This document shows positions 37,892 through 62,073 of a DNA stretch of 64,000 bases, piece after piece; position 1 is the stretch's first letter, and each line of letters opens with the position of its first letter. Location of the stretch: assembly GCA_050008535.1 (NCBI GenBank), contig JBEKML010000002.1:24732-88731 (forward strand), given 5' to 3'. Under the pieces are notes generated by a model. It did not search any database and had not been told where the DNA came from. It saw only the letters and a program-made list of their open reading frames with translations. The stretch is from Minisyncoccia bacterium. Its GTDB lineage: Bacteria > Patescibacteriota > Minisyncoccia > UBA6257 > 2-01-FULL-56-20. The translations under genes and the position numbers were made by a program.

Positions 37892-40800
37892 TTATCCGAG
37901 CCGCTTTGCGGCGTCGCAGATAAACTTGACCTCGCCGTCGCGCGGGGAAATATGGCCCTGCACGATCACGGGCGCGTTTTCGGCCCATACGGACGAGGTT
38001 TTCTCAAGGACGCTATTGAAGACCACGACTTCAAGCGGTTTCTGGGAAGCATCCTCGATGGTCGCAAAGATCATTGGTTGGCCGTTCTTTGTGAGGATCT
38101 TCCGCATTTTCGTCACAACGCCCGCCGCGCGCACGATAAGCCGTTCGTTCGTGACGGACATAAGCTCTGCGATCGGTCGCACGCCGGCATTCTTCAGTTT
38201 TTCCGCAAATGCCGCCAAAGGATGTTCCGAAAGATAGAACCCGATCAGCTCTTTTTCCCAGGCAAGCTTTTCGGCATTCGTCGCCGGCGGCGCGGGTTTG
38301 AGTTTCAAGGACGCCGCGGGCATGGTATCGCCAAAAAGCGATCCGCCATTCTGCATGCCTGTGCCACGCCGCGCCGCATTCGTGAAACGCAGGATGTCAT
38401 CCATGTTCGCGAGCGCTTGATTGCGTTCAATGCCAAGCGATTCAAATGCACCGGCCTTCACCAAACTTTCCAGCGATTTTTTGTTCAGGTCCTTGTGCTG
38501 GATGCGCATCAGGACGTCCTCAAAATTCTTGAACGGCCCGCGCCGTGTCCGTTCTTCAATGATGGCCTTCGTGATCTCCGTGCCGACGTTTTTCACCGCT
38601 TCAAGGCCAAACCGGATCTTTTCGCCTTCCGGCGTGAAGGCGACGAAGCTTTTGTTGATGTCGGGCGGGAGGATATCGATGCCGGATTGCTTCGCTTCTT
38701 GGATAAGGAACGAGATGCGCTCAATATCGCTTACCTCGGCGTTCAGGAGCGCCGCCATGAATTCTTCCGGATAGTGCGCTTTAAGATACGCTGTTTGGTA
38801 GCCGATCAGGGCGTAGCACGCAGCGTGCGATTTATTGAACCCGTAGCGCGCGAAGGGCGGAAAGAGCTCCCAAATGGCTTTTGCGGTGCGTTCCGGGATG
38901 CCGTTTTTGATCATGCCCTGCGTGAGCTTCACGCTTTGTTCGTCAAGCAGGGATTTTATCTTTTTCCCGATCGCTTTGCGGAGCGTATCGGCTTCGGGGA
39001 GCGTATAGCCGCCGAGGTCGCGGGCAATTTGCATCATCTGCTCCTGGTAGACGCCGATGCCATAGGTATTTTTCAAAATCGGCTCGAGCTTCGGATGGAG
39101 ATAGGTGATCTTTTCCTCGCCGTGCTTGCGCTTGATGAAAGAAGGAATAAGTTCCATGGGGCCCGGCCGGAAGAGCGCCACAAGCGCGATCAGGTCTTCA
39201 AGGACCGTAGGGCCGATGTCTTTCATGTAGCGCCGCATGCCGCTTGACTCAAACTGGAATACGCCCGTCGTGTCCGCTTTTTGAAGCAGCGCGAATGTTT
39301 TTTTGTCGTCCAATGGGATCTGGGAAATATTCACTGTTTCACCGTGGAGTTCCTTCACGAGGCGGACAGCATCTTCGATGATGGTCAGATTTTTGAGGCC
39401 CAAGAGGTCGATCTTCAGGAGGCCGAGGTCTTCCACGGCGTGCATTTCAAATTGCGTGATGATGATATCTTTTTCCTGCGGGGCGAATTGCACCGGCACA
39501 CGCTCAGTCAGGAGCTCCTTCGCGATCACGGTGCCGCAGGCGTGGACCGACGCGTGGCGTGCGACGCCCTCCAGGTGCCGCGCGGTGTCTATCAGTTTTT
39601 TTGCGTCGGGGTTCGCATCGTAGAGCGCTTTCAGTTCGGCGACTTTTTTCAGGCATTCATCGAGCCATCCTTCCTTCATGCCTTGCGTAGGATTGAAGGG
39701 GATGAGTTTCGCGATCTGGTCACAGAAAGCGTATGAATACCCCATCGCGCGGCCGGCGTCGCGGATCGCGGCGCGCGCCGCCATCGTCCCGAAGGTGATG
39801 ATGCGCGCTACGTGGTCCTCGCCGTACTTTTCGCGCGCATAGGCAAGCACTTCATCGCGCCGCGTGTCGGCAAAATCAATATCAATATCCGGCATCTGGA
39901 TACGCTCCGGGTTCAGGAACCGCTCGAAGAGCAGGCCATAGGTGAGGGGATTAATGTCCGTGATGCCGAGCACGTACGAGATCAAACTGCCCGCCGCCGA
40001 TCCTCTTCCGGGCCCCACGGCTATGCCATGCATTTTTGCCCAGGTAATAAGGTCCTGGACGATCAGAAAATAATCGGCGAAACCCGTTTTTTCGATGACG
40101 CCGAATTCATATTCCAGCCGATCGCGCACTTCTTTGGTTTGCGCCGCGGGAGGGAACCGTTCTGGCAGTCCCTCCTCCATGAGTTCGCGGAGGTAGGCGT
40201 TCGCGGTTTTCCCGTCGGGCTTCGGAAAGTCCGGCAGGAGCACCTTTCCGAGCTCCAGGTCAACATTGCAGCGTGCGGCGATCTCCGCCGTGCGCTCCAC
40301 GGCTTCGGCGCCGCCCGGGATCGCGGCGAATTTTTCCATCATTGCTTCTGGTGAGAGCACTGAAAAATCATCCTCCTTCATGGTCAGGCGGTCGTCGTCG
40401 GCAAGCCTGTTGCCGGTCTGGACGGCCAGGAGCACGTCGTGATATTCGTTGTCTTCGGAGTGGAGATAGTGGCTGTCTTGCGTTGCGACGAGCGGGATGC
40501 CGGTCGCAACGGAGAGCGCCACAAGCGGCGCTTCTATTTTTTCCGATTCGGGAACGTGCGGATGCTTTTGAATTTCCAAAAAATAATTTTCTTTGCCGAA
40601 AATGGACCGGTATTCCTCCGCGATCTTTTTTGCTTCTTCCGTCCGTCCCGCGGAGAGCGCCTGGCCGATCTCGCCGCCGAGGCATGCTGAAAGTGCGATC
40701 AATCCTTCGTGGTGCTCGCGGAGGAGATCTTTGTCCACGCGCGGGCGGTAATAAAACCCCTCAAGGTGAGCCTTGGAGACGAGCTTGATCAGATTTTTCC

Positions 40801-41089
40801 ATCCCGTTTCGTTCTCGCAGAGGAGGATAAGGTGATAGTATTTTTCGCTGGTCTCTTTTGAGAACCGATCGCGCGGCGCGACGTAGGTTTCCACGCCGAT
40901 GATCGGTCTTATGCCGTTCTTTTTCGCGGATTTATAAAACTCAACGACGCCGTAGAGCACGCCGTGATCGGTCAAGGCGACCGCATCCATGCCGAGCTCT
41001 TTTACGCGCTTTACGAGCGGATCTATCTTTGAAAGGCCGTCAAGGAGGGAATAGTGGGAATGCGTATGAAGGTGGACGAATTTAGGCAT
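37892..41089 (-). CDS. dnaE: DNA polymerase III alpha subunit
   Basis: N-terminal PHP domain (VHLHTHSHYSLLDG), polymerase core, C-terminal OB domain; 1065 aa. Confidence 0.95.
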   Translation of the reverse strand: MPKFVHLHTHSHYSLLDGLSKIDPLVKRVKELGMDAVALTDHGVLYGVVEFYKSAKKNGIRPIIGVETYVAPRDRFSKETSEKYYHLILLCENETGWKNLIKLVSKAHLEGFYYRPRVDKDLLREHHEGLIALSACLGGEIGQALSAGRTEEAKKIAEEYRSIFGKENYFLEIQKHPHVPESEKIEAPLVALSVATGIPLVATQDSHYLHSEDNEYHDVLLAVQTGNRLADDDRLTMKEDDFSVLSPEAMMEKFAAIPGGAEAVERTAEIAARCNVDLELGKVLLPDFPKPDGKTANAYLRELMEEGLPERFPPAAQTKEVRDRLEYEFGVIEKTGFADYFLIVQDLITWAKMHGIAVGPGRGSAAGSLISYVLGITDINPLTYGLLFERFLNPERIQMPDIDIDFADTRRDEVLAYAREKYGEDHVARIITFGTMAARAAIRDAGRAMGYSYAFCDQIAKLIPFNPTQGMKEGWLDECLKKVAELKALYDANPDAKKLIDTARHLEGVARHASVHACGTVIAKELLTERVPVQFAPQEKDIIITQFEMHAVEDLGLLKIDLLGLKNLTIIEDAVRLVKELHGETVNISQIPLDDKKTFALLQKADTTGVFQFESSGMRRYMKDIGPTVLEDLIALVALFRPGPMELIPSFIKRKHGEEKITYLHPKLEPILKNTYGIGVYQEQMMQIARDLGGYTLPEADTLRKAIGKKIKSLLDEQSVKLTQGMIKNGIPERTAKAIWELFPPFARYGFNKSHAACYALIGYQTAYLKAHYPEEFMAALLNAEVSDIERISFLIQEAKQSGIDILPPDINKSFVAFTPEGEKIRFGLEAVKNVGTEITKAIIEERTRRGPFKNFEDVLMRIQHKDLNKKSLESLVKAGAFESLGIERNQALANMDDILRFTNAARRGTGMQNGGSLFGDTMPAASLKLKPAPPATNAEKLAWEKELIGFYLSEHPLAAFAEKLKNAGVRPIAELMSVTNERLIVRAAGVVTKMRKILTKNGQPMIFATIEDASQKPLEVVVFNSVLEKTSSVWAENAPVIVQGHISPRDGEVKFICDAAKRLG

Positions 41090-42897: not shown

Positions 42898-45800
42898 CTA
42901 CGGGATCTCTATCCGATTGGATCCTGATACATTGACGCTCGTCGTGACATTCACGCTATTTAATGGTCCCGCGCCTCCTCCCTGGCACGAAAGATTGTAC
43001 GTCGCGGCTTGCGTCGGGGAGACCGACAAGGTTCCTCCTGCCGGGTTCACTGAAGTGCCGTTTATGGCGCATGAAACAGTGTTTGTGCAGCTCCACGAGA
43101 GTACTGATGATTGCGGCGGGACGATCAGCGTGGGGCTTGCGGAGAAGGTGCAACTCGGCGCAATAACGGTGATCAATACGGAGTCCGAGGCGCCGCAGGC
43201 ATCCGTCGCTGTTAGTTGGTATAAACCTGGCTGGGAATATGAGACGGACCACGAATCACCGGCACCCATAGACCATGATGGGTCCGTAGGCCCCGTCGAG
43301 GTCCATGAAAAGTCCCCACAGCCTCCTGAAGCGGTAGCGGTCACGATGCTGCCCACGGGCACGGTGGTGGCAGGAGTTATGGAAATAGAAGGAGGAGAGG
43401 GTGCGTTTACCGTTATTGGCGTGGCTCCTGATTTTGTCGGGTCCTGAACGCTCGTCGCTTTTATAACGGCCTGCATGGATCCCGCAGCCAGCGCGACCCT
43501 GGCGGGCAGCCACAGTTCTTTCGCGGCGCTTATGCTTGCGGGTGCGGTATAGACGCCGCTTGCGTTAATTGATCCGCCGCCACTCGCGACCGACCAGGTT
43601 ACCGCAGAACTGTAACTGCCAGTGCCGCTAACAGTCGCTGAGCACATCGAGGTTCCTTCGAGCGGGACCGAAGTCGGGCTACAGGAGACGGAGACGGAGC
43701 CTATTGTGGACGCGGGCGGCGCCGAAGAGACGGAAATATTGCACGTTTTCGAGCTCGCGCCGCTTGTCACCGTCGCTGAATAATCGCCGGATGTGTTGTA
43801 GGTCGTCTGGAAGAAAGATCCATTCCAGGTGGAGGGGCTCGCCCCGCTTGAGGTCCAGCTGTAGGTGCCGTTCCCGCCGCCGGCACTGAAGGAAACCATG
43901 TCGCCCGTCGCCGAGGATTGATCCGCAGGGCTGCAGGTGAGTGCCACCGGAGTAGGTGTGACCGAAAGGGTTGCACTGTCCGAGGCGCTCCCGCCGGGGC
44001 CGGTGCAGGTCAGGGTGTAGGTATGCGTGCCGACCGTTGAAGGAGAGATCACTCCTTGCTGGTTTGAACCCACCGATTGCGCACCCGACCAATCGCTCTC
44101 TGCGGGGGAGGCGGAGGCGGTACAAGCGGTTGCGTTCGTGGTGGTCCAGAAAAGCGAGGCCGATTGCCCCACAGTGATGGGAGAAGGAGAGACCGAAAGG
44201 GAAACGGCGGGGGTCGTGCCGGTGCTCACGGTAAAGTCAACGTCGTTGGACTGGACGTTCGGCGAAGAAAATTGCGCCCACTCCGTCCAGGAACCAATGG
44301 TTCGTCCCGAAGCCTAGAGCGGAGCAGTTGGTCGGTCCATTATGAGTGGCGCAGAACGAAAAGGGCGTATTGGGGATATTTGAAGTAAGGTTGAGCGTCC
44401 ATGCCTGTCCGACTGTGAAATTACCGCTTGTGCCGCCGTTGATAGTGAGCGATGCGGTCGCGGCCGGGCTTACTACAAGGGTTGCGTTACTCGAGGCGCT
44501 CCCGCCGGGGCCGGTGCAGGTCAGGGTGTAGGTGTAGCTGCCCGTGGCGGCGGGGGAGACCGAGGTGGAGCCGCTCGTTGATCGCGAACCGGACCAGGCA
44601 TTCGACGCGGTGCAGGCGGTTGTGTTCGCGCTTGACCAGGTGAGCGTTGCCGATTGCCCGGCGTTGATGGAGGAAGGAGAGACCGAAAGGGAAACGGCGG
44701 GTTGTCGTTTCGCCCTTAAAAGCGATGCTGGCAACGTATGTCCCTGCAGTACTGGGAGGAGTTGTAGATATCGTCACATTACTCGATAGCCCCTGGTTAA
44801 TTGGCGAAATATTGGATAAAGAAGTGGACAAAGAAGATTCCTGAATCCATCCGCTCGAGGGCCCGCTTATATAGGTTACGTTCGCGCTTAAGCCGCCCAA
44901 AGTTGATCCTTGTGTGCCGCTATTCGTGATCGTTACCTGCCCGCTTGTATCGGATGGACTCAAAGAAAGTGATTCGGGGCTTACCGCCATTTTTGCTAAG
45001 GGATCCCACGAAATAATAAAATTGGCGGTGAGTTGGGAAGGGGAAAGTGTTAAGGTGTCCGCCGGGGAAATACTTACCGCATTTGCGGTTGGGATCGAGG
45101 AAAGAACATTCTTCAAAAGAGCGAACGAACTTGGCGTGTGGGTATCGTGCAAAGCAACATCCCGGTTTTCTATTGAGTGCAATGTATACTGGGTTTGATC
45201 AGATGGCGTAGCGGCGTTTGCTGGCAGGGTATACTGGTCATTATTTGCCCTCAGGCCAGTGTAAGTTCCTTGATAAGCATTGTCGCAGGAACCACCGTGC
45301 CCGGAACAGGGATCGTTGCCGGTGGGAAAAGCTGTGAAGTGCCAACTTGCAGGTACCGACAGATCGGTTTTGGAGTTCTTCGAAGAAACGGTGATCGTTC
45401 CATTTGTGCCGCCGACCGGGTCACATGTGCCGGGCGTTGAACCGGGGGTGTACGTTATGCCGCCCGTGAGGCCCGTAGCTGCCGTGTAGCAATAGGTTGC
45501 ACTCTGGGCATCTACCCAAGCTGACCCGCCGCCCCATTTCCCCGAACCGTTTGGCTTACATGCATTTATTACCGTAACAACGAGCTGATCGCCGGGATTT
45601 ACAACTGCGCTCCCGCTGCCGCCATTCCCACTGCCCGCCCCTCCGCAGCCGGAACCGGCAACATCGTCCGGGCCGCACGTGCAACCATTATAAGAATAAT
45701 AAAAGGTCCCGATTTGTGCGGATCCATTATCATCAAACGCAGCAACGCCAACATCTGCGGTGGTATTTGGATAAATGCGAATATTTACATAACCGCCTGG

Positions 45801-46085
45801 ATCGAGCCATGTCCCGGCGGGGATGCCTACCTGCGTGGCCGTTTCGGTCCATCCCGCAGGCAATGAATCTCCCCCCGCAGAATGGCACGTTTCCCCGCCC
45901 TTGCTGTATCCTCCCCAGTAGAAAAGTGAACAAGTGGAATTCCACATATTGGCGTGACTTACGAATCCGCACATCGTAGCCCCGTCGGAGCATGTCGCCA
46001 ATGCCGCGAAGGAAATTGACGGCGAAACAAGCGCAAGGGTGAATGACGCGACTGTCAAAATAAAAATGGTTTTCTGTGGTTTCAT
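42898..46085 (-). pseudogene. giant secreted Ig-like-repeat surface protein, fragmented into three consecutive ORFs (46085-44487, 44734-44237, 44229-42898)
   Basis: Signal peptide at 46085 end; frame change between ...AFKGETTT and QPAVSLSVSPSS (~44715) and stop/restart at 44237/44229, both at boundaries of a repeated TTPAVSLSVSPS...YTLTCTGPGGSAS module; Big_2-like segment in last ORF. Confidence 0.5.
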
Positions 46086-46088
46086 TGT

Positions 46089-46910
46089 TTATGAATTGGG
46101 TACTTTTGAACTCACAATAATGTTTGTCTGCCCTTTCGCTTCTCCTTGGATCTGAACGTTTATCTGCTCCTTCGTTGAACTATTTTCCGCGAAGATGGTT
46201 GCAAGCGCGGAGGTGTTCGTCTTGGTCATGATCTGCCATGACGCGCCGGAGAAGAGACCAAGGTATTGGTTATAAAGTGTGCTTACCGATTCGCTGCTTT
46301 GGTATATCGCAGCGGTCGTGTGAACACCACTTGCGGGATCGGGATTGTCGCTTGAACTTAAAATTTTCGCCGAAGGATCAACGACAAGCTTTCTGGGGAA
46401 TCCTGTTACGAGCGTACCTTGCTGAACGGTCAGATGAGCGAATTGAGGCGTCGCGGTTCCCGCAATCCCCGTCCCGTAACTTACGGTGACCTGCGACCCC
46501 GACCCCTGGACGACGATTGCAACGCTCACCACGGAGGAAGCATTCTCCGCGTAGAGGCCCCGGGAGTTTTTATATTCCGTGACTTTGTTTGTGATCGGCC
46601 AGCCATTCGCTGGAAGGTATGCAAGATATTCATTATAGATGTCCGCGACAGAACTGGAGGAATTGAACGAAACGGTATACTGGTTCGTGCTCGTGCTGTA
46701 GTTTATACTATAACTTTGCGAAATGCGCGCGAGGGAATCAAGAACGAGCTCTTTCGGAAATCCGGGCGTGAGTTGGCCGCTCGGCGCAAAAGCGGGCGTG
46801 CCCATTGGCACCGGCCGCGTTGACGAGAAATACCACCAAAAAGCAAGAAGTATGACGATTACGACAGCGATCGCAATAAAGACAATTCGTGCTCGCTTGT
46901 CCATTTCCAT
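46089..46910 (-). CDS. membrane-anchored protein with internally duplicated domain
   Basis: N-terminal TM helix; two homologous halves (FPKELVLD...YNEYLAYL...GWPI / FPRKLVVD...YNQYLGLF...SWQI); 4 nt upstream of adhesin start. Confidence 0.6.
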   Translation of the reverse strand: MEMDKRARIVFIAIAVVIVILLAFWWYFSSTRPVPMGTPAFAPSGQLTPGFPKELVLDSLARISQSYSINYSTSTNQYTVSFNSSSSVADIYNEYLAYLPANGWPITNKVTEYKNSRGLYAENASSVVSVAIVVQGSGSQVTVSYGTGIAGTATPQFAHLTVQQGTLVTGFPRKLVVDPSAKILSSSDNPDPASGVHTTAAIYQSSESVSTLYNQYLGLFSGASWQIMTKTNTSALATIFAENSSTKEQINVQIQGEAKGQTNIIVSSKVPNS

Positions 46911-47024
46911 TAGACTTATTATACCAAATCCTCCAAAAAAGAAATAGTGTGGATAGAAAACGGCCCCAGCAGCGCACAGTGCGCACCGCTGGGGCCGAAG
47001 TTGGTTTGGTTCCCGCCAGGGAAC

Positions 47025-48980
47025 CTAGAAGAGCGTAACGGTCAGCGACACCGGTTGTGAGGTCGTGCCGCCGGGACCCTTGCATTTCAGGGTCCCTTTG
47101 AGGGTCATTGGAGGCGTCCAGAGAGGTACCGCAATCGTCACGGAGTTGTTGACGGGTTGCTTGCCCTCGATGTCGCCCGACGCAACGCAGGAATCTGCAT
47201 CGGTCGTTTTCCACGTGATGGTCGCTGTCTCTCCTGCGCGAACTTTCTCGGGGGAGACGGAAAGGGTGATCGTCGGCTTTGGCGAAGCGGATTCTGATCC
47301 GACATCCGCGGGAGCGTCATCAGTAGGGTTCCTCGCGATGAAGATCATATTCCCATCAGAGCCGGGACGGGGACGACGGGAAACGTTTGCCATCTGCCCG
47401 CTACTGCCGCCACCGCTCATCAGAAGCGCTTGGCACTCGTTCGCCGCACACGCATACATCTGTGTGCCATCGGGCGAGACACCAAACCCAACTGCGAGCA
47501 GGTTGCTCGTTACTGACAGGTTCGTGGCCGTACCGGTCTTCGCGTCCACCGAGATGAACCGCGAGAGGCCGGCGACGGGGTCGGCGATAGCAACAAGAAT
47601 ACTGCCGTGCGTTTCGTCCGCTGCGATCCGGATAGGGGACAGTCCATCCCCCAGGATCGCACGGAGATCCACACGCTTGGTCTCCTTCATCGTCGCGATG
47701 TCAAAGATGACCAGTTGCTTGTCGGGCTGGGCAAGGAACGCCCCAGTGCCGACCGCGGGTCCCGAATTGAAGGCGGCGAGTTGCCATCCGCCAGCAGTCG
47801 CGCTGGCATCGGCTCCTACCTGGGTGATCCCGGGGAGGAACAGAAATCCCTTGGTGCTCATGTCGGGAACCGAGATTCGCCAAAGGGTTGAATCCCCGCG
47901 CGAGTAGACGATAGCATCCAGCTCTTTGCCGAGTTGCGCCATCGTGAGCGACCACGGATAGCTGCCGACCGACGTTGAGATCATCGATGGCGTGTCTTGG
48001 GCTAGATCAAAACTCGATACTAGCCCATCTTTGGGTTGAGTGACGCAGGCATAACCACTTCTGGCCGCTACGGCCATGGTCTGCTTACCATTGTATGCCG
48101 TGTGCACTCCGCTGGCGTTCGTCCAATCAACCACCATACTGCCAGCGCCCGCGCGTACGATTGACTTCGTTGTTTCGTCGTATGCTATGCCGCTGCCCCC
48201 TTCCGTCAAAAACCCATTCGGGGTCACGGTGGTTCCCGGGCCGACCAGGAATTTCCAGATATGCTGTTGCTTGTCGTCGGTGAGTGTTCCCTGTTGCAGT
48301 TGGAATAGCTTTCCTGACGAATCAAGCGCGAGTGTGTTCTGGTTCCCCTGGTAGCCGAAACTCATCGAGTTCGAGGTGCCTGCCGGACACTTCACTGACC
48401 AGCGGTAGAACTGCGGCGGCGACCAGCTAAAACTGAGGGTCACCCAGATTTTGTTGGGGGCCGTTCCTTCCAAGAGGGTCAGATCCACCCATGGATCTGC
48501 CAGGTGCAGCACGCACCCTGCGGCGAACCCAGACCCGTTGATCTGGATATTGCCGATGACCGATCCCCCGTCATCAAGATAGACCACATTCGGCGTGATC
48601 GAACTGATTACTGGGACCGGTGGCGTCACCGTGAGTGTCATTGAGGCGCTCTTTGTCGGGTCTTGCGTGGATGTCGCTGTTACCACGACCGTCATTGACG
48701 TCGTCGTGGACGGGGGGGTGAACAGCCCGCTTCCGGTGATCGTGCCCGCGCTCGCGGACCATGTCACCGCGGAACTGTAATTCCCCGTACCCGTTACTGA
48801 CGCCGAACATTGGGATGTCGCACCGCTTACGATCGTCGCCGGTGAGCACGTGATGCCCACCGATGTGATGGTAATGGGCGTGGGGGTGACTCCGCCGCTG
48901 GAACTTCCACCACCACTGGGGCAACCCGTCCCTGCCACGATGGCAAGGACGAGGATAGTCCAAAGAACACTCGTTTTCAT
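47025..48980 (-). CDS. lipoprotein-like surface protein: Big_2 Ig-like domain + beta-propeller-like region + C-terminal Ig-like domain
   Basis: Signal + LAIVAGTGC lipobox-like Cys; ITCSPATIVSGATSQCSASVTGTGNYSSAVTWSAS Big_2 motif; C-terminal domain resembles adhesin repeat. Confidence 0.65.
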   Translation of the reverse strand: MKTSVLWTILVLAIVAGTGCPSGGGSSSGGVTPTPITITSVGITCSPATIVSGATSQCSASVTGTGNYSSAVTWSASAGTITGSGLFTPPSTTTSMTVVVTATSTQDPTKSASMTLTVTPPVPVISSITPNVVYLDDGGSVIGNIQINGSGFAAGCVLHLADPWVDLTLLEGTAPNKIWVTLSFSWSPPQFYRWSVKCPAGTSNSMSFGYQGNQNTLALDSSGKLFQLQQGTLTDDKQQHIWKFLVGPGTTVTPNGFLTEGGSGIAYDETTKSIVRAGAGSMVVDWTNASGVHTAYNGKQTMAVAARSGYACVTQPKDGLVSSFDLAQDTPSMISTSVGSYPWSLTMAQLGKELDAIVYSRGDSTLWRISVPDMSTKGFLFLPGITQVGADASATAGGWQLAAFNSGPAVGTGAFLAQPDKQLVIFDIATMKETKRVDLRAILGDGLSPIRIAADETHGSILVAIADPVAGLSRFISVDAKTGTATNLSVTSNLLAVGFGVSPDGTQMYACAANECQALLMSGGGSSGQMANVSRRPRPGSDGNMIFIARNPTDDAPADVGSESASPKPTITLSVSPEKVRAGETATITWKTTDADSCVASGDIEGKQPVNNSVTIAVPLWTPPMTLKGTLKCKGPGGTTSQPVSLTVTLF

Positions 48981-49179
48981 TATTTGTCCGTCCTTTCAAG
49001 TGGCAGGGGCTTGATGTCCCTGCTTCTAACCACAATTATACTACATACAACCCTATCTTGTCAAATCGGCAAAAATGTGTGAATATGTGGGCAAAACTTG
49101 AACTCGCAAACGCACGCGCTTCTTTTCAAACCCCGTGGAATCTGCTAGATTTTCATTGGAGCGCAGGCGTTACGGGCGC

Positions 49180-49251
49180 GCCGGAGTAGCTCAATGGCAG
49201 AGCAATGCTTTCGTAAAGCAGAGGTTGGAGGTTCGACTCCTCTCTCCGGCT
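49180..49251 (+). tRNA. tRNA-Thr (CGU)
   Basis: Identical to tRNA-Thr(UGU) at 41257 except anticodon arm (...GAGCAATGCTTTCGTAAAGCAGAGG...); anticodon loop TTCGTAA. Confidence 0.8.
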
Positions 49252-49259
49252 CCACTATA

Positions 49260-49622
49260 ATGAAGATAATGCGAGGAAGAGATGTTTCGAGCGGTAGTCT
49301 TTTTGGCGAATCGGGGCCGGGAGAAGGAGGCCCTTTGGCGCCAGGGTACCACTTCAACGAGGGGGGAGAAATAATTGATGATAAGGGGGATGTCTATAAC
49401 GGTGACTATACGCTGAAGCGCAAGGCGCTCGATCCGTATTTCGAAAAGGCGCTTAACTCGGTTCGCGAGAATCTTCAGAACGAAGGAAGAAATGAGCCGG
49501 AAGAATTTGTGAGACAACTTGCCCGCATAGAAGCGGCGCAAGCGAGGGCGGAAGATAAGAGAAAAGAAAAGGAACAGAAACGCGCGGAAAGGGCAAGAGC
49601 GCGGGAAGCGAAGCAGAATTAA
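49260..49622 (+). CDS. hypothetical protein with Lys/Glu/Arg-rich C-terminal tail
   Basis: 120-aa ORF starting 9 nt after tRNA; ORF-track start 49194 lies inside the tRNA. Confidence 0.45.
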   Translation: MKIMRGRDVSSGSLFGESGPGEGGPLAPGYHFNEGGEIIDDKGDVYNGDYTLKRKALDPYFEKALNSVRENLQNEGRNEPEEFVRQLARIEAAQARAEDKRKEKEQKRAERARAREAKQN

Positions 49623-49630
49623 AGATAACC

Positions 49631-50702
49631 ATGAAAGAAATCGAGAACCTTGAAGCATTGCAGTCCGAAGCCCGCCGGCTGGGCGGGCGTCTTTGACCTT
49701 GCGGCAAAAGAAAAAAGAATAGGGGAGTTGGAGGCGGAGATGGCGTCCACAGTGTTTTGGAAAAATCGCGAGGCGGCGGATGAAAAGATCCGCGAACTCG
49801 GCATTCTCAATGACGTCGTAAAACGCTACCGTGAAATTGAGAGCGGCATCGCCGCGCTTGAACGCGGACGCACGGCGGGCGCGGGCGCCGACTCCGGTGC
49901 CGCCGGCAATCTTGACGAAGGAACATTCTACGAGCTTAAAAAGAAATTCAGGGACTTTGAACTGAAGCAGCTTTTCACGGGACGGTACGATGCGCAAGCG
50001 GCGGTGCTTTCTATCTATCCGGGCGCGGGCGGCGAGGATGCGGAAGATTGGGCGCGGATGCTCGGCCTCATGTATGAAAATTACGCGAAGCGGCGCGGAT
50101 GGAAAATACGGGTGGTCGACGACAATATCCGTTCGCGCACGATCGAAATAAAAGGGGAGCATGCCTATGGGTATCTAAAAAAAGAATCCGGCGTGCACCG
50201 GCTCGTGCGCATCTCCCCGTTCTCGCCGAAAAAACTGCGGCATACTTCATTCGCGCTTATTGAAGTAGTTCCCGACCTGCCGCCGCTTGAAGAGTCAAAA
50301 TTGCAGATCCCCGAAAAGGACCTGAAAGTTGAATTTTATCGTTCGGGCGGTCCCGGCGGACAGAACGTGAACAAGGTGGAAACGGCCGTGCGCGTGGTGC
50401 ATGTGCCGACCGGACTCGCCGTGAGCTCGCAGGCGCAGCGGTCACAGGCCCAGAACCGCGAATATGCGCTGAAACTTCTGAAAGCGAAACTTTTCCACCT
50501 CATGGAAAAAGAAAAAGTGAGCGAGATCAGCGCCCTGCGTGTGAAGGTGAAGCCGGAATGGGGGAACCAGATCCGTTCCTACGTATTAAACCCCTATCAA
50601 TTGGTAAAAGACCACCGCACCGAAGTAGAAACAGCGAAGGTAGAAGGTGTTTTGGCGGGCGATCTGGACCTTTTCATTGAAGCGGAACTGGAAATGTTAT
50701 AG
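49631..50702 (+). CDS. prfB: peptide chain release factor 2 with programmed +1 frameshift (frame 0: 49631-49693, shift at CTT TGA C 49691-49697, frame +1 to 50702)
   Basis: Frame-0 MKEIENLEALQSEARRLGGRL then in-frame TGA at 49694; +1 frame continues DLAAKEKRIGEL...SGGPGGQNVNKVETAVR (GGQ motif); GGGCGGG upstream of CTTTGAC. Confidence 0.9.
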
Positions 50703-50725
50703 AATATGAACAAAAGGCAAATTTC

Positions 50726-51415
50726 ATGATCGTTTTTCAGGGAGTTTCAAAACATTATGGCAACGGGATGCCAAGCGTTGCGCTTGAAGATGTGACGTTC
50801 CAGGTTGATCCCGGGGAGTTTGTGTCCCTCGCGGGGAGATCGGGCGCGGGGAAATCAACCGTCATCAAGCTTCTGATCGGCGAGGAAAAACCTTCCAAGG
50901 GACGGGTGTTTTTCGGCCAATACGAGGTGAACAAGCTTGAAGACAAGGATTTGCCTGCTTTCCGCCGGCACATCGGCGTGGTATTCCAGGATTTCCGGCT
51001 TCTCCCTATGAAAAACGCTTACGAGAACGTAGCATTCGCGCTTGAAGTGGCGGGGCGGCCCCAGCGGGAGATCGCGGAACTCGTTCCCCAAGTTCTGGAT
51101 ATGGTCGGCTTAGGCGATAAAATGAAGAATTTCCCAAGCGAGCTTTCAGGCGGCGAACGGCAACGGGTTGCGATCGCGCGCGCGATGGTCCATCGGCCGG
51201 AGGTTGTGATCGCGGATGAGCCGACGGGCAACCTTGATCCGTTCCATACATTCGAGATCGTAAAGCTTTTGGAGAAGATCAATCAGCTGGGCACGACCGT
51301 TGTCCTTGCGACGCACGACAAGGAAGTAATCAACAGTTTGGAACGGCGGGTGATCACGCTGGACCGCGGCAGGGTCATCCGCGACGAGGCAAAAGGAAAG
51401 TATGTTTTAATATAA
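50726..51415 (+). CDS. ftsE: cell division ATP-binding protein FtsE
   Basis: ABC ATPase with GRSGAGKST Walker [15 protein letters not shown] signature, short FtsE length. Confidence 0.88.
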
Positions 51416-51417
51416 CC

Positions 51418-52329
51418 ATGTTCACCGTTGTCTCGCGCATTTTCCAATTTGGGTTCAAGAATTTCTGGCGGAACGGCTGGCTTTCCACGGCGACCGTGGC
51501 GATCATGACGCTTGCGCTCCTTGTGTTCGTGTCGCTCATCATGTTCGGGGTGGTCACTGACCGGGCGGCGGCCTCCATCCAGGATAAGATAGACATCAGC
51601 GCCTATTTCAGCACGAACACTTCCGAAGACCAGATTTTGAATATCAAGCAGTCGCTTGAAGGATTGCCCGAGGTGCAGAGCGTGCAATACATTTCCCGCG
51701 ACCAGGCGCTCGAGATCTTCAAACAGAACCACGCGAACGATCCGACGGTGAGCCAGGCGATCAACGAATTGAACACGAATCCTCTTGAAGCGTCGCTCAA
51801 TGTCAAGGCAAAAGACCCGAGCCAGTATGCGGCGATCGCCCAACACTTGAGTTCGCCGGACATCGCGCAATATCTTGATGGGCAGCCGAGCTATTACGAC
51901 AATCAGAGCGTCATTGACCGCCTGGCAAAGATCGTGAAAGGGGTGGAAACCGGCGGCTTGGTCGTCACCTTCTTTCTTGCGCTCATCGCCGGACTTGTTG
52001 TTTTCAATACCGTCCGCCTTGCGATCTATTCCAACCGCGACGAGATCGGGGTCATGCGCGTCGTCGGCGCTTCCAATAGTTTGGTGCGGGGACCGTACGT
52101 GGTGGAAGGCATGATCTGCGGCACGATCGCGGCCGTGATCAGTTTGATCATCGCGGCGCCGGTGCTCTATGTCGTTTCGCCTTATCTCAATATTTTCATC
52201 CCCAACCTCAACATTTTTGAATATTTCTCCGCGCACATTGTCCGCCTGTTCGTTTACGAGCTGCTCTTCGGGATAATAATCGGTGCTTTCTCGGGTTTCA
52301 TTGCCGTGAAGCGGTACCTGAAGAACTAA
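51418..52329 (+). CDS. ftsX: cell division permease FtsX
   Basis: 4-TM FtsX topology with large periplasmic loop; follows ftsE. Confidence 0.85.
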   Translation: MFTVVSRIFQFGFKNFWRNGWLSTATVAIMTLALLVFVSLIMFGVVTDRAAASIQDKIDISAYFSTNTSEDQILNIKQSLEGLPEVQSVQYISRDQALEIFKQNHANDPTVSQAINELNTNPLEASLNVKAKDPSQYAAIAQHLSSPDIAQYLDGQPSYYDNQSVIDRLAKIVKGVETGGLVVTFFLALIAGLVVFNTVRLAIYSNRDEIGVMRVVGASNSLVRGPYVVEGMICGTIAAVISLIIAAPVLYVVSPYLNIFIPNLNIFEYFSAHIVRLFVYELLFGIIIGAFSGFIAVKRYLKN

Positions 52330-52332
52330 AGG

Positions 52333-52875
52333 CTAAAACCGCATATCGTACCAATCCAATCCGTAGATTTCTTGGATGAGGATTCTCTCGCCCTTGGCCC
52401 ACGTCCGATTTTTTTCTAGGCCGAGCAGTGTCACGCCCTCTTTTACGTGTTCTTCGCTTTTGCCCTCTATTTCCAAATACGGTGGCATTTTGGGGTAGAG
52501 GTCTATTTCAAAGACCCAATCTTTCAGCGCGAACGACGTTCGTTCTTTGTCCTGGTGCGCATATTTTTCAAGTCCGATCATCAAAAAAAGATCGGCTAGT
52601 TTCTCCGGCTCTGCGACCGTAAAATTTATTTCCTTATGCGTCCGTGCGGTGCCCAGGATGTCCGACTTTCCCTTCCACGTGACCTCATGTTTTCCGGCGC
52701 TATTGGAACGGATGCGCAAAAACCATGGATCTTTTCCCTCCTTCACTCCTATCGTCCGATACCAATCCACCCGCAAAACGGTTTCCTGTGTTTTTTGGGC
52801 CCCAAGCGCCGCGAGTTTTTCCTTTACCGCATCGGCGTCGATGTCCAGAACTGTCGTTTCGGTTTCGTGTGCCAT
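52333..52875 (-). CDS. CYTH-domain protein (triphosphate tunnel metalloenzyme family), paralog 1, degenerate N-terminal ExExK (ETETT)
   Basis: LRIRSNSAGK, YLEIEGKSEE motifs shared with paralogs 2 and 3. Confidence 0.65.
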   Translation of the reverse strand: MAHETETTVLDIDADAVKEKLAALGAQKTQETVLRVDWYRTIGVKEGKDPWFLRIRSNSAGKHEVTWKGKSDILGTARTHKEINFTVAEPEKLADLFLMIGLEKYAHQDKERTSFALKDWVFEIDLYPKMPPYLEIEGKSEEHVKEGVTLLGLEKNRTWAKGERILIQEIYGLDWYDMRF

Positions 52876-52953
52876 TTCGTCTTGTGTTGCTATTTTAACA
52901 AGTTTATACTTGAAGTAAAATCTTTACTTTTGCGGTCGGTATATAATAAATCC

Positions 52954-53469
52954 ATGGAGGAAATTGAATTGACGTATCTTGCGCGGGCGCTGCCTCCGGG
53001 CATTCTAAGTGCTCCGCGCAAAGAAATGCTTGATATTTATATTCCCGCGTCGGCGGAGCATCCTGATCTGCGGATACGGAGGGTCGGCGAAAAGTGCGAG
53101 ATCACCAAAAAGCGGCCGATCAAAGATGGGGATGCCTCCCATCAAATGGAAAACACCATTCCGCTCACGAAAGAAGAATACGAAGAGATGAGCCAGCTGA
53201 AAGGGAAGCGGACCAGAAAAACCCGCTACTATTACGAAGAAGGCGGAGCGCGGTATGAAGTTGATATATTTCGGGACGATCTTGCAGGGCTTGTGCTTGT
53301 TGATATTGAATTTGATTCACTGGAAAAGAAAAAGAGTTTTCATCCGCCAGCATGGTGCCTTGCGGAGGTGACGCAGGAGAAATTCCTTGCGGGCGGGATG
53401 GTTTGCGGGAAGCGGTATGCGGACATTGAGCCGCAGCTCGCCAAGTTCAACTATAAAAAGATCCTGTGA
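52954..53469 (+). CDS. CYTH-domain protein, paralog 2 (EIELT in place of ExExK)
   Basis: LRIRRVGEK, VDIEFDSLEKK; TATAAT ends 6 nt before ATG (leaderless-type). Confidence 0.65.
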   Translation: MEEIELTYLARALPPGILSAPRKEMLDIYIPASAEHPDLRIRRVGEKCEITKKRPIKDGDASHQMENTIPLTKEEYEEMSQLKGKRTRKTRYYYEEGGARYEVDIFRDDLAGLVLVDIEFDSLEKKKSFHPPAWCLAEVTQEKFLAGGMVCGKRYADIEPQLAKFNYKKIL

Positions 53470-53624
53470 AAAATTACGCAAAGGTAGGCAACCGCGCCGG
53501 ACGGCCCGCGTACCGCACCGCCTCGCAATTTCGATACAAGAAACAGGCAACCGTTTTAAAAACCAAAGCGGCAGAACGTAAACGGTTCAAACCCGGCCGC
53601 GGATGAATTTGATATACTCAACGG

Positions 53625-54215
53625 ATGAATATTGAATACGAAGCGAAGTTCTTAGACGTTGACAAGGATGAAATCAGGGGGCGTCTAAGGAATGCGGGAG
53701 CTGACCTCGTGCGGCCTGAATACCTGCAAAAAAGAATCCCGTTTCATCTTCCTAAAAACAAACGCTCAAAAGACGCCTGGCTTCGCGTTCGAGACGAGGG
53801 TGACAAAATAACCCTAAGCCTGAAAGTAGTAGACGGCGAAAAGATAGAAAACCAAAAGGAAATTTGCCTTAATGTCAGCAGTTTTGACGACGCCGTAAAA
53901 CTACTTGAAGCTATCGGTTGTGAACCGAAATCGTATCAGGAAACAAAGCGAGAGCTGTGGAAACTTGACGGAGTTGATATTACTATCGACGAATGGCCTT
54001 TTCTTGAGCCGTTCGTTGAAGTTGAAGGCTCGTCGGAGGAAGTAGTGAAAAGAGTTTCAGAAAAGATCGGATTCAATTATACTGACGCTCTCTTCTGCGC
54101 TGTCGGCAAGCTGTATCAAATGAAATACCATATTCATCCGGACGAAATAAACACTGCGTCAAAAATAGTTTTTGATATGGAAAATCCGTTTAGACGGCCT
54201 TCGGCCGGGTTCTAA
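53625..54215 (+). CDS. CYTH-domain protein, paralog 3 (canonical EYEAKFL ExExK motif)
   Basis: IEYEAKFLDVD, LRVRDEGDK, FVEVEGSSEE; TATACT ends 6 nt before ATG. Confidence 0.7.
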   Translation: MNIEYEAKFLDVDKDEIRGRLRNAGADLVRPEYLQKRIPFHLPKNKRSKDAWLRVRDEGDKITLSLKVVDGEKIENQKEICLNVSSFDDAVKLLEAIGCEPKSYQETKRELWKLDGVDITIDEWPFLEPFVEVEGSSEEVVKRVSEKIGFNYTDALFCAVGKLYQMKYHIHPDEINTASKIVFDMENPFRRPSAGF

Positions 54216-54261
54216 CGTTATCCATACCCGAAAAGGCAATTTCGTGTTATTATCTCCTCGT

Positions 54262-55020
54262 ATGCCGCAAATTTCCCTTCGCGCGGAAGAGATTTTTCAC
54301 ATCGGGAGCTTCCCGGTGACGAACGCAGTCCTTTTATCCACGATCGTACTGGTACTCCTTGCGGTGTTCGCCGTAGCGCTGCGGCGGAAACTTTCCTTCA
54401 TACCGGGCATGGTCCAGAACGTGATGGAGCTTATTATAGAGGGGGCGCTCTCGCTCATGGACTCGGTGCTTGGCAACCGGAAAACCTCCGAAAAATATAT
54501 GCCGATCGTTTTTACGGTATTCCTTTTCGTCCTGTGCTCCAATTGGCTCGGCCTGTTCCCGGGCGTGAGTTCGGTCGTAGTGCGTGAGGGAGCGGAAAGC
54601 GTGCCGCTCCTGCGCTCTCCCGCGAGCGACCTGAACTTCACCTTGGCGCTCGCCTTGATCGTGGTCACCTTCGTGAATGCGTTCGGCGTGGCGGCGGTCG
54701 GCCTGCGGAAGCGCCTCTCGGTATTCTTCAATTTCAAGGGGCCGATAGATTTTTTCATCGGCATCCTTGAACTTATCTCGGAATTTGCTAAAATTATCTC
54801 GTTCTCGTTCCGTCTCTTCGGGAACGTATTCGCGGGCGAGGTGCTCCTGGCCATCATGTCGTTCCTCGTGCCATACCTCGTGCCGCTCCCTTTTATGTTC
54901 CTGGAAATCTTCGTGGGGTTCATTCAGGCATTCATCTTCGGGATGCTCACGCTGGTCTTCGTCGCTATGGCGGTGGCCGAGCATGGCCACGAGGAAATAG
55001 AAACAGCAAAGGTCGGTTAA
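54262..55020 (+). CDS. atpB: ATP synthase F0 subunit a
   Basis: RLFGNVFAGE motif with essential Arg; 5-6 TM; ATG at 54262 (ORF-track start 54172 is upstream extension). Confidence 0.9.
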   Translation: MPQISLRAEEIFHIGSFPVTNAVLLSTIVLVLLAVFAVALRRKLSFIPGMVQNVMELIIEGALSLMDSVLGNRKTSEKYMPIVFTVFLFVLCSNWLGLFPGVSSVVVREGAESVPLLRSPASDLNFTLALALIVVTFVNAFGVAAVGLRKRLSVFFNFKGPIDFFIGILELISEFAKIISFSFRLFGNVFAGEVLLAIMSFLVPYLVPLPFMFLEIFVGFIQAFIFGMLTLVFVAMAVAEHGHEEIETAKVG

Positions 55021-55047
55021 ATCTTTATTAAAAACACATTAAAAGAA

Positions 55048-55278
55048 ATGGATATCAATAGCATTCGGTTACTCGCTACGTTCGGCGCCATCGGCATGGG
55101 CACCGTGGTCCCCGCGCTTGCGATCGGTTTGATCGGTGCGAAGGCGGTGGAAGCGATCGGGCGGAATCCCGAGGCGGCTTCCAAGGTGCAGACGATGGCA
55201 ATTTTGGCCATCGCTTTCGCGGAAGCCATCGCGATCTACGCGCTCGTCATCGCGCTCATCATTAAATTCGTACAATAA
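55048..55278 (+). CDS. atpE: ATP synthase F0 subunit c
   Basis: 76-aa hairpin proteolipid with conserved carboxylate (AFAEAIAIYALVIA). Confidence 0.92.
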   Translation: MDINSIRLLATFGAIGMGTVVPALAIGLIGAKAVEAIGRNPEAASKVQTMAILAIAFAEAIAIYALVIALIIKFVQ

Positions 55279-55289
55279 ATTATTGAGTC

Positions 55290-55793
55290 ATGCAGCAGCT
55301 TTTCGATCAATTGGGCATAGATTGGCACCTGCTTTTGAGCCAGGCGGTCAATTTTTTCTTGCTGCTCGTTGTGCTGCGGATTTTCGTGTATAAACCGCTC
55401 TTGAAGCTTTTGCATGACCGGCGCAGGAGGATTGAAGAGGGACTCGTGAAGGCCGACGAGGCGGACAAACGCCTTCTTGAGGTTGAAGAGATCGGGAAGG
55501 GGAAGATAAAAGAAGCGGAAATGCAGGCGGTGGGTATTCTAAGGAAGACCGAGGGCGACGCGAAGGAGCTTGAGGCGCGGCTGCTCGCGGAGGCGAAACG
55601 GAAGGAGGCGGAGGAACTTGCGAACGCTGCGGTAAGGCTCAAGGCGCAGGAAGCGGACTCGCGGCGGGCAACAGAGAAGGAAGCGGCCGCGATGGTGAAG
55701 CGGGCGATTGCAAAAACGGTAGAGCTTTCGCCGGAAAAAATAGACGACGCCCTGATCGCGAAAGCGGTGAAGGAGGCGGGACAAAGCGCATGA
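55290..55793 (+). CDS. atpF: ATP synthase F0 subunit b
   Basis: N-terminal TM then long charged coiled coil. Confidence 0.88.
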   Translation: MQQLFDQLGIDWHLLLSQAVNFFLLLVVLRIFVYKPLLKLLHDRRRRIEEGLVKADEADKRLLEVEEIGKGKIKEAEMQAVGILRKTEGDAKELEARLLAEAKRKEAEELANAAVRLKAQEADSRRATEKEAAAMVKRAIAKTVELSPEKIDDALIAKAVKEAGQSA

Positions 55794-56176
55794 AGTATCC
55801 AGCGCACATATATGCAAAAGCGCTTGCGGAAGCGATTACGGCGCCCGGAGCGGGCGGCGACGTCATCGCAAAGAACTTTCAGGCGCTCCTTCTGCGGAAC
55901 GGGGACGAAGCTCATGCGCGGAAGATCGTGGAGGAAGCGGCGCGGTTCGTCCGCGGGAAGCACGGAATACGGAAGGTAACGATCGAATCGGCGCGGAAAC
56001 TCGGTGCGGCGCAGCGCAAGATCGTCGCCGTGCTCACGAAGCCGGGCGACATCGTTGAATCGCGGATCGACCCGGAGCTCGTGGCGGGGATCCGGCTCAT
56101 CGTGAACGACGAACTGCAGTTTGATGGATCACTTAAGGGGAAGCTGGACAAGATTTTTGAAATATCTCATCTCTAA
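55790..56176 (+). CDS. atpH: ATP synthase F1 delta subunit (short, 128 aa)
   Basis: Position between atpF and atpA; OSCP-like C-terminal motif. Confidence 0.75.
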
Positions 56177-57702
56177 TGGCATATGAAATCATAGAAAAAT
56201 TAAAAAGGGAGATCGAAGGATACAAAGAAAAGCCCGAATGGGCCGAGGTCGGCCGCGTGCTTGAAGTGGGCGACGGCATCGTGAAGATCACCGGCTTGCG
56301 GAACGCCGTGAGCCAGGAAATTTTGACGATCGAGACGCCGAAAGGCGCCCGCGCGGCGCTGGCGTTGAGCCTTGAAGAAGAATCCATAGGCGCTTTGGTC
56401 CTTGACGATTATTTGGCGATAGAGGTCGGCAATACCGTGAAGCGTACGGGCAAAGTGCTTTCGCTGCCGGTGGGCGAGGAGCTTATCGGCCGTGTCGTTG
56501 ACCCCTTGGGCAATCCGCTGGACGGCAAGGGCCCCATTTTCAAAACCGGCGTGGAGCCGCAACGGAATCCGTTGGAAGCCAAGGCGCCCTCCGTTTTGGA
56601 GCGCGAATCGGTGAATACGCCTTTACACACCGGCCTCAAGGCCATTGATTCCATGATTCCGATTGGCCGCGGCCAGCGCGAACTTATCATCGGCGACCGA
56701 CAGACCGGGAAGACCGCGGTGGCCCTGGACGCCATTTTAAATCAATTGAACGACGGCGGCCGGCGGACGCCTGTCTGTATTTATGTTGCGATCGGGCAGA
56801 AGGAATCCAAGATCGTAAGGATCGCGGAGACGCTCAAAAAGTTTGACGCATTGAAATACAGCATCATTGTTTCGGCATCCGCATCGTCCCCGGCGGCCTT
56901 GTGGTACTTGGCGCCGTATGCCGGCTGCGCGATCGGTGAATATTTCCGCGACAAAGGCAAGGATGCGCTTGTGATCTACGACGATCTTTCGAAGCACGCA
57001 TGGGCTTACCGGCAGATCTCGCTTTTGCTCCGGCGCCCGCCGGGCCGCGAGGCATATCCGGGCGACATTTTCTATCTGCACTCGCGTTTGCTTGAACGCG
57101 CCGCAAAGCTTTCCAAAGAAAAAGGCGGCGGATCCCTGACTGCGCTCCCGATCGTGGAAACGCAGCTCGGCGACGTTACGGCCTATATTCCGACGAACAT
57201 CATCTCCATCACGGACGGGCAGATCTATCTGGAAAGCGACTTGTTCTACCAGGGCCTGCGTCCGGCATTGAACGTCGGTATTTCCGTGTCGCGCGTGGGT
57301 TCCGCCGCACAGACGAAGGCGATGAAAAAAGTGGCAGGCAAGCTGCGCCTTGCGCACGCGCAGTTCCGCGAGCTGCAGGCATTCGTCCAGTTCGCGACGG
57401 ACGTTGACGAAACGACGAAGAAGCGCATCGCGCAGGGGCAGAAGATCAACGAGGTCCTGAAGCAGGACGACCTCGCGCCGCTGCCGGTGGAAAAACAGGT
57501 CTGCATCTTCTACGCGGTCCTTAATAATTATTTTGAAAGCGTGGAAGTGGCCGACATCAAAAAGACCGAGGCCGGGCTTTTGGAATATCTGGGGCGGCTC
57601 CACGAGAAAGATATCCTTGCGCCCATCCGCGAGACGGGGGAGTTCACAGAGGCGGTGGAAAATAAACTAAAAGAGGCCGTCGCCCGATTTTTGGAGAAAT
57701 AA
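56176..57702 (+). CDS. atpA: ATP synthase F1 alpha subunit
   Basis: GDRQTGKTA Walker A, full alpha-subunit domains. Confidence 0.97.
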
Positions 57703-57713
57703 AATGAAATAGC

Positions 57714-58649: not shown

Positions 58650-58652
58650 TAA

Positions 58653-60041
<1,389 letters not shown>

Positions 60042-60052
60042 TTTTCACTCAC

Positions 60053-60304: not shown

Positions 60305-60324
60305 CGGCAACTTTAGTTTCGAGC

Positions 60325-60735: not shown

Positions 60736-60756
60736 GCAATCACTGCAATTATCGTT

Positions 60757-60796
60757 CACAGGTTGGGGAAATTTTCCCAACCTGTTTCGTTTTTCG
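60757..60796 (+). terminator. rho-independent terminator closing atp operon (acaggttggggaaattttcccaacctgt + TTTCGTTTTT)
   Basis: 11-bp stem, T-rich tail. Confidence 0.75.
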
Positions 60797-60809
60797 GTAT
60801 ACTATAACT

Positions 60810-61567: not shown

Positions 61568-61569
61568 AA

Positions 61570-62028: not shown

Positions 62029-62032
62029 AGCC

Positions 62033-62060: not shown

Positions 62061-62073
62061 ATGGAGCGAAACT

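Follow-up and report, generated by a model that had tools for sequence, protein, structure and literature searches.

Two probably artefactual losses split the gene for a secreted Ig-like-domain protein in a Minisyncoccia contig

A 64,000-nucleotide (nt) stretch of a Minisyncoccia bacterium contig (GenBank JBEKML010000002.1, positions 24,732 to 88,731; hereafter ‘the window’) carries three consecutive minus-strand open reading frames (ORFs) at 42898–46085 that raise a simple question: are they three genes, one gene broken in the organism, or one gene broken on the way to the database? A sequence-only reading had taken them for a single secreted protein of ~1,060 amino acids – a ‘giant Ig-like-repeat adhesin’ broken exactly at domain-repeat boundaries. 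We found that the three ORFs are one gene, encoding a secreted Ig-like-domain protein of ~1,100 amino acids, and that two segments of this gene are missing from the window. The losses are probably an assembly or finishing artefact at a 537-nt unit that forms a loop in assembly graphs, and we infer a technical rather than a biological origin for them.

Three open reading frames are pieces of one gene

ORF1 occupies 46085..44487 (532 amino acids), ORF2 44734..44237 (165 amino acids, from a TTG start), and ORF3 44229..42898 (443 amino acids, from a GTG start), all on the minus strand. Three-frame translation resolved them into a single coding path with two frame changes, each equivalent to +1, so that three frames are used. 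A signal-peptide-like N-terminus is present on ORF1 only (MKPQKTIFILTVASFTLALVSPSISFA, ~46005–46085; judged by eye, without a predictor), as the sequence-only reading had also noted. The TTG and GTG starts of ORF2 and ORF3 sit in a G+C-rich context. The confident gene starts that we checked elsewhere in the window are all ATG (27 of 27), behind an A/T-rich ‘ataac(c)’ leader and without a Shine-Dalgarno motif.

A look-up of contigs whose flanking hydrolase is identical to the window’s led us to an ENA contig (k141_566997, 60.7 kb; fetched locus L006) that encodes an uninterrupted ORF of 1,100 amino acids. A more distant homolog (P0001, 1,444 amino acids, from a metagenome-assembled genome of an uncultured Candidatus Saccharibacteria) aligns with ORF1 residues 212–461 (48% identity) and with all of ORF3 (54%) within one polypeptide. 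The 5′ part of the gene is homologous to P0001 residues 296–544, the 3′ part is collinear with the P0001 C-terminus, and the P0001 locus and the window have NUDIX and dnaE neighbours in common. The intact L006 allele, together with a homolog that covers the ORF1 and ORF3 pieces, bears out the earlier proposal of one secreted protein of ~1,060–1,100 amino acids.

The window lacks two segments of an otherwise identical allele

Across the window’s 3,188 nt, L006 shows zero substitutions, and the sole differences are two segments that are absent from the window. At break 1 (44702/44701, minus strand; junction ACGACAA/CCCGCC), 68 nt are missing (ATGTAAACGG...CCTCGGCT, encoding NVNGTPYVPTPPPVTVTFTVSSA). 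At break 2 (44302/44301, minus strand; junction GGGACGA/ACCATT), 47 nt are missing (CCAACGGAAGCGGCAACTGGACGCTCTCGGGAAGTTTTGATAACTCG; the intact protein reads GFGTTNGSGNWTLSGSFDNSTIGSW across the site). Both missing lengths are of the form 3n+2, and the coding path therefore runs through three frames in the window.

The breaks divide the gene into three native pieces, all on the minus strand. The 5′ piece (44702..46085, intact-allele positions 1–1384) encodes the signal-peptide-like N-terminus, a Cys-rich N-terminal region, and a beta-rich domain ending ...IAFKGETT. The middle piece (44302..44701, allele positions 1453–1852) encodes a first PKD/Ig-like module (module 1, 44465–44701) and the first half of an 88-amino acid domain (44315–44449). 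The 3′ piece (42898..44301, allele positions 1900–3303, stop codon included) encodes the second half of the 88-amino acid domain (44227–44304), module 2 (43954–44211), and a PKD domain, followed by a Big_2-like domain, more Ig-like domains, and a module-like C-terminus. Two stretches of the annotated ORFs are not native protein but out-of-frame read-through on the minus strand: the ORF1 tail at 44487..44700 (RRFPFGLSF...RERLE, then a stop) and the ORF2 tail at 44237..44300 (...HWFLDGVGAIFFAERPVQRR, then a stop).

These coordinates confirm some of the earlier claims and revise others. The first frame change, previously placed near ~44715, falls exactly where module 1 begins, at a base that also opens a 29-nt exact repeat. 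The second had been read as a stop and restart at 44237/44229. By that point, however, the downstream frame has been open since 44313, and the GTG at 44229 is just its first start-like codon; the real break lies 90 nt upstream of module 2, within the different, 88-amino acid domain. A gene ‘broken exactly at domain-repeat boundaries’ is thus an accurate description of break 1 and not of break 2. Nor are the lesions small indels at a repeat junction: both are deletions of unique sequence relative to an otherwise identical intact allele, and the contexts upstream of the two modules differ because they are simply different sequences, not through slippage.

The position of break 2 emerged from the 88-amino acid domain itself. 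A profile built from 68 copies of this domain in 33 proteins fits the window at profile positions 2–44 in one frame and at 63–87 in the next, with positions ~45–62 unmatched, and from this gap we expected some 40-odd nt to be missing near 44300, which L006 then bore out. Placing break 2 by tblastn with P0001 was unsuccessful, the sequence being too divergent. A 1-nt indel in an ATTTTC run and a shift at CGT TGA C were also considered for break 2 and discarded, given the 47-nt loss at 44302/44301 that the profile and L006 both indicate.

Neither deletion has end microhomology, and Tandem Repeats Finder identified no simple-sequence repeat or homopolymer at 44302 or 44702. An alternative description of break 2 is the loss of 48 nt between 6-nt direct repeats (CGACCA), together with a single additional A.

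We compared nonsynonymous and synonymous substitution rates (dN/dS) between strains that are 94–96% identical. In the native frame, dN/dS was 0.39 for the 5′ piece (versus L002), 0.17 for the middle piece (versus L002), and 0.16 for the 3′ piece (versus L004), while off-frame controls gave 1.0–2.4; over 1,380 nt of the 3′ piece there are no indels relative to L004. These values show purifying selection on all three pieces. An established old pseudogene was rejected on the same grounds – selection is not relaxed (dN/dS 0.16–0.39), no further stops or indels are present, and there are zero substitutions relative to the intact allele.

The lesions are specific to the window’s assembly

The rest of the window offers an unusually direct comparison. 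Positions 1–44301 are 100% identical to JGI contig Ga0427963_0000376 (L020, L024, and L007) and positions 44702–64000 to JGI contig Ga0427963_0000164 (L013 and L028). These two contigs, from one metagenome, cover 63,600 nt of the window with zero mismatches and zero gaps. Both terminate within this gene, overlapping at allele positions 1453–1579, and each contains a segment that the window lacks: the 68 nt in L013 and the 47 nt in L007. The lesions are specific to the window’s assembly, and two contigs that are identical to its flanks lack them. The window’s only two differences from public contigs fall in this stretch, and the other window genes that we checked appear unbroken.

The individual pieces are also widely recovered, with the 5′ piece 100% identical to L006, L013, L003, L014, L017, and L019, the middle piece to L006 and L007, and the 3′ piece to L006–L011. 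We compared 30-mers that span the junctions in their deleted form (AGGGCGAAACGACAACCCGCCGTTTCCCTT for break 1, TAGGCTTCGGGACGAACCATTGGTTCCTGG for break 2) and in their intact form (AGGGCGAAACGACAAATGTAAACGGCACTC, ACGGTGTCCTCGGCTCCCGCCGTTTCCCTT, TAGGCTTCGGGACGACCAACGGAAGCGGCA, and AGTTTTGATAACTCGACCATTGGTTCCTGG). Six distinct contigs, drawn from six assemblies, carry the intact break 1 30-mers, and the JGI contigs L002 and L003 read directly across this site. The intact break 2 30-mers occur in L006 and L007, the right-hand one additionally in L008 and L010 (two to four contigs). The window’s two deleted-junction 30-mers are absent from all 30 fetched loci; every other fetched assembly that reaches the sites is without these lesions. 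Exact-product look-ups returned no record for the 532-, 165-, or 443-amino acid ORF products, while flanking proteins are recorded on 7–15 contigs.

A comparison of the whole window with L007, L011–L015, L017–L020, L024, L028, and L031 recovered the same sequence at 100% identity in contigs from eight metagenome assemblies (JGI, ENA, and Logan; up to 20.7 kb per fetched locus). This marks an unusually clonal environmental population.

A repeat structure at which most short-read assemblies stop

As the sequence-only reading had observed, the gene contains a repeated module. There are two copies of ~250 nt, 490–511 nt apart and 81–86% identical at the DNA level, which contain two exactly repeated stretches. 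The 29-nt repeat lies at the start of module 1 (44673..44701, minus strand; break 1 has its right edge on the first base of this copy) and, as an exact match, at the start of module 2 (44183..44211, minus strand). The 42-nt repeat lies in the YTLTCTGPGGSAS region of module 1 (44492..44533, minus strand) and again at 43981–44022.

Independent assemblies terminate at predictable places relative to this structure. Their contig ends fall at allele positions 1453+k-1 and 2018-k+1, with matching left and right offsets in any one assembly: 127/127 for 3300038451 and 123/123 for 3300018018. Further offsets are 141 for the contig named k141 and 30 for Logan unitigs. In all, the 29-nt repeat and the assembler’s k determine where at least nine contig ends from seven assemblies lie, and these ends, with the tail of L007, indicate a loop in the assembly graph. 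The 29-nt repeat alone is insufficient to create branches at these k values.

One contig end suggests what else may be present. The end of L007 (8548–8645) displays the join that closes the loop: 98 nt otherwise found just before module 2 run via the 29-nt repeat into module-1-specific sequence. This join is consistent with the junction expected from tandem duplication of a 537-nt unit (module 1 plus the 88-amino acid domain; 179 amino acids, in frame), and some or all genomes probably carry this unit as a tandem duplication. Even L006 may thus represent a single-unit collapse of a longer form. None of the contigs that we fetched spans two full units.

The 5′ ends of the modules carry shared strain-specific substitutions, as seen by comparing window positions 44640–44701 and 44150–44211 with L002 and L004: GTTTCCCTT is present in both window modules and GTCTCGAT in both modules of the L002/L004 strain. 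This pattern indicates concerted evolution of the module 5′ ends by gene conversion. The protein thus combines gene conversion between modules with probable variation in unit copy number, features that short-read assembly systematically breaks on or collapses.

A technical origin is the more probable explanation of the breaks

How might an assembly have acquired these lesions? In the scenario that we favour, the 537-nt unit, bounded by the 29-nt exact repeat, forms a loop in assembly graphs, and nearly all other short-read assemblies stop on it. The two blunt losses would have been introduced while the window’s assembly was carried through this loop or finished across it, at a step that could have been scaffolding, gap closing, polishing, or a manual join. 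Besides the intact L006 allele, the absent junction 30-mers, the unrecorded ORF products, the k-dependent contig ends, the purifying selection, and the unbroken state of the other checked genes, several considerations support this scenario. In a sequence with zero substitutions over 63.6 kb, ordinary mutation is very unlikely to have produced two independent deletions within 520 nt of each other. The breaks lie where other assemblies break, and one of their edges is a repeat boundary. Finally, a second inactivating lesion gains nothing. The absence of end microhomology is likewise the pattern of pieces laid end to end rather than that of replication slippage. General sequencing error was considered and rejected, since the window matches Illumina-type contigs with zero mismatches over 63.6 kb.

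Several points weigh against an artefact. Break 2 is internal to one of the JGI contigs, not at a contig end or a repeat edge, and lies 90 nt from the repeat, matching no clear branch coordinate. We found no simple k-mer or trimming arithmetic that gives 68 and 47 nt. Trimming of fixed k-mer overlaps was set aside as an explanation: k=119 would match the point where sequence picks up again beyond break 2, but no value matches the left edges. De Bruijn assemblers normally emit no junctions that are absent from reads, and a post-assembly step must therefore be assumed. Real repeat-associated deletions, moreover, would likewise cluster here. Repeat-induced breaks and misjoins in short-read metagenome assemblies resemble the present case in having contig ends fixed by a repeat and k, and differ from it in that break 2 is off the repeat edge.

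The principal rival, which we regard as rather unlikely, is that the sequenced population or its dominant clone carries real and very recent loss-of-function deletions. These would have arisen in one complex event or in two events in an unstable repeat region, perhaps selected for loss of a surface antigen or receptor; only a truncated secreted product would be made, from ORF1, with the downstream pieces left silent. Loss-of-function variation is common in surface proteins. The lesions are clean and set in high-quality sequence, the region bears signs of recombination (the concerted module 5′ ends and the junction that fits an in-frame 537-nt duplication), break 1 terminates at a repeat boundary, and break 2 can be cast as the loss between CGACCA repeats with an extra A. 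Against this stand two frame-breaking deletions in a gene that, with its 63.6 kb of flanks, has zero substitutions; neither is seen in any other fetched assembly, break 1 lacks microhomology, a second inactivating lesion would have no selective value after the first, and there is no sign of relaxed selection. Two specific routes were rejected. Clean direct-repeat slippage at break 2 would yield an in-frame 48-nt deletion between the CGACCA repeats, whereas the window has an extra A. For a hairpin-mediated deletion at break 1, the only candidate is a weak bulged 8-bp stem, offset from the ends (judged by eye).

A particular form of real deletion – a single complex recombination or repair event in a copy-number-variable 537-nt array, such that the length and expression of the protein vary within a clonal population – strikes us as improbable. 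Under it, length would vary by gain and loss of units and by gene conversion of modules, and expression by out-of-frame scars. If the deletions are real, the locus would be an example of very recent inactivation of a surface protein in a strikingly clonal population.

We judge it highly improbable that the breaks are functional, whether through phase variation by slippage or recombination or through programmed +1 ribosomal frameshifting that restores the full-length protein. Both shifts are in the same (+1) direction, and the genome does use programmed +1 frameshifting ~5 kb from the broken gene, in prfB (release factor 2; window 49631–50702, plus strand), which has a canonical CTT TGA C site at 49691–49697; the frame-0 stop context at 44237, CGT TGA C, loosely resembles it. 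However, neither break has a simple repeat or homopolymer, the missing pieces are unique sequence that slippage could not regenerate, and homologs both close and distant keep to a single frame. No slippery codon or stop occurs at the true break points (ACA ACC CGC and ACG AAC CAT), and even with frameshifting the product would miss 23 and 16 beta-strand residues from two domains. The likeness to prfB therefore ends with the nominal direction of the shift: the breaks here are without a shifty codon or stop, are not conserved in homologs, and are due to missing DNA.

Programmed frameshifting was rejected with the window’s own prfB site as a positive control, and a phase-variable locus because the 68- and 47-nt losses are irreversible, no simple repeat is present, and the deleted state is absent from all other fetched contigs. 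Of the explanations that the sequence-only reading had offered, assembly error in repeats and a pseudogene thus stay in play, and slippage-driven phase variation drops out for want of a simple repeat, microhomology, and reversibility. UGA recoding (code 25) was discarded as well: the genome encodes release factor 2 with a UGA-dependent frameshift site and therefore reads UGA as a stop, and the three ORFs do not share a frame.

The chance that the three ORFs are separate, independently translated genes is practically negligible: each is long (165–532 amino acids) and has a start-like codon, but the identical sequence is a single ORF in L006, ORF2 and ORF3 begin with TTG and GTG and have no A/T-rich leader, unlike the 27 checked genes, ORF1 and ORF2 end in out-of-frame read-through, a signal peptide is confined to ORF1, and the break points cut through folded domains. 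Ribosome-binding contexts of their own and homologs as separate genes, which the sequence-only reading had held would argue against a single gene, were likewise not what the locus presented.

On the favoured technical origin, the locus as it stands is mainly a quality flag. It is best annotated as one gene, with the 1,100-amino acid intact form as reference; it belongs in no tally of pseudogenes or phase-variable loci, nor should it be entered as three hypothetical proteins.

Domain architecture and relatives of the intact protein

We next consider the protein that the intact allele would encode. Its predicted architecture is a signal peptide and a Cys-rich N-terminal region, followed by a string of beta-sandwich domains (PKD/Ig-like, 88-amino acid, and Big_2-like). 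For the repeated module we assembled an alignment of 46 sequences (two from the window and 44 from hit proteins), and an AlphaFold2 model predicted a seven-strand beta-sandwich with a predicted local distance difference test (pLDDT) score of 95.9. The best Foldseek match of this model is the PKD domain 1l0q (template modelling (TM) score 0.76, root-mean-square deviation 1.8 Å), followed by 4tn9, 4jrw, and 1b4r; the S-layer Ig-like domain 8cka was matched as well. The 79–86-amino acid module is thus modelled as a PKD/Ig-like beta-sandwich. By sequence, the Pfam evidence is borderline. The repeated module scores 17–18 bits against Pfam PKD families, below threshold, and has its own conserved pattern (L..W....NA..C.ASG.WSG......YTLTC.G.GG). 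A different domain, at ORF3 residues 110–168, scores 25.0 bits against Pfam PKD PF00801 (cut-off 23.5), or 23.0 bits when scored in the full-length protein.

The 88-amino acid domain (LTINGxxxGxFxVGQxWTL...C...GxTDxNGNWxxSGxF....GSWxEWxxF....SNxIxFTV; window 44227–44449, minus strand) matches nothing significantly in Pfam. We counted 68 copies of it across 33 proteins (P0108–P0140), with up to six in tandem, and it appears to be an undescribed extracellular domain family.

In fold, the modules resemble those of PKD-domain surface and S-layer proteins – the Methanosarcina surface-layer protein 1l0q, the collagenase ColG (4tn9 and 4jrw), and the Deinococcus HPI S-layer (8cka). The protein described here is likewise secreted and has many such domains, one of which, distinct from the module, passes the Pfam PKD cut-off when ORF3 is scored and falls just short of it in the full-length protein. 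It differs from them in that the module falls below the Pfam threshold and has its own conserved pattern, and in that we recognised no cell-wall or membrane anchor in the protein. It may act as an adhesin or S-layer component. The ‘giant Ig-like-repeat adhesin’ of the sequence-only reading therefore survives as a secreted protein of Ig-like repeats; ‘adhesin’ is only inferred, and ‘giant’ is generous for 1,100 amino acids. Large multi-domain surface proteins of Saccharibacteria and other candidate phyla radiation bacteria are candidates for host attachment.

Some tandem-repeat surface proteins, including alpha C and Rib of group B Streptococcus and Aap and SasG of staphylococci, change repeat number by homologous recombination. 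The gene described here is like these in the homogenisation of modules within strains and in the graph loop and junction, drawn from several metagenomes, that fit an in-frame 537-nt duplication. It is unlike them in that its modules are only 81–86% identical and are separated by another domain, and the window’s lesions are out of frame, in unique sequence, and not of unit length.

Of two scans of GTDB genomes, the first was empty and the second yielded a single homolog, the Saccharibacteria ortholog at 54% identity. A word-index protein search with a 95-amino acid linker region and a PDB sequence search with the intact protein gave no matches, and one literature search returned nothing specific. 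The title of the ortholog’s genome and synteny, the sole grounds for it, suggest a Saccharibacteria-like assignment.

Two smaller features distinguish the protein from its relatives or link it to them. Relative to P0001, its Big_2-like domain has an in-frame insert of 18 amino acids (around SAAKELWLPARVALAAGS; window 43480–43540, minus strand), which strain L004, at 96% identity, also has. Short tails of a similar E-[IT]-x-P-like form follow the module-like last domain in the window (…SGSNRIEIP), P0001 (…GVHETNP), and P0109 (…SWKEIPP), and could be a sorting signal or a coincidence.

Neighbouring genes

Two upstream genes at window 46089–48980 (minus strand) resemble part of a surface-protein cluster. 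The 651-amino acid protein of this pair has a Big_2-like domain (44% identity) and a PKD-like module (36%) in common with the broken gene; the 273-amino acid protein, encoded between the 651-amino acid gene and the broken gene, has only a weak AF_1845 match.

The programmed frameshift in prfB has a consequence for annotation, in that the ORF lister gives only the downstream, 350-amino acid part of the gene. On the other side of the broken gene, dnaE (window 37892–41089, minus strand) encodes a protein of 1,065 amino acids that is intein-free, and the dnaE of the Saccharibacteria relative (L001, 11757–16166; 1,469 amino acids) contains intein and LAGLIDADG domains.

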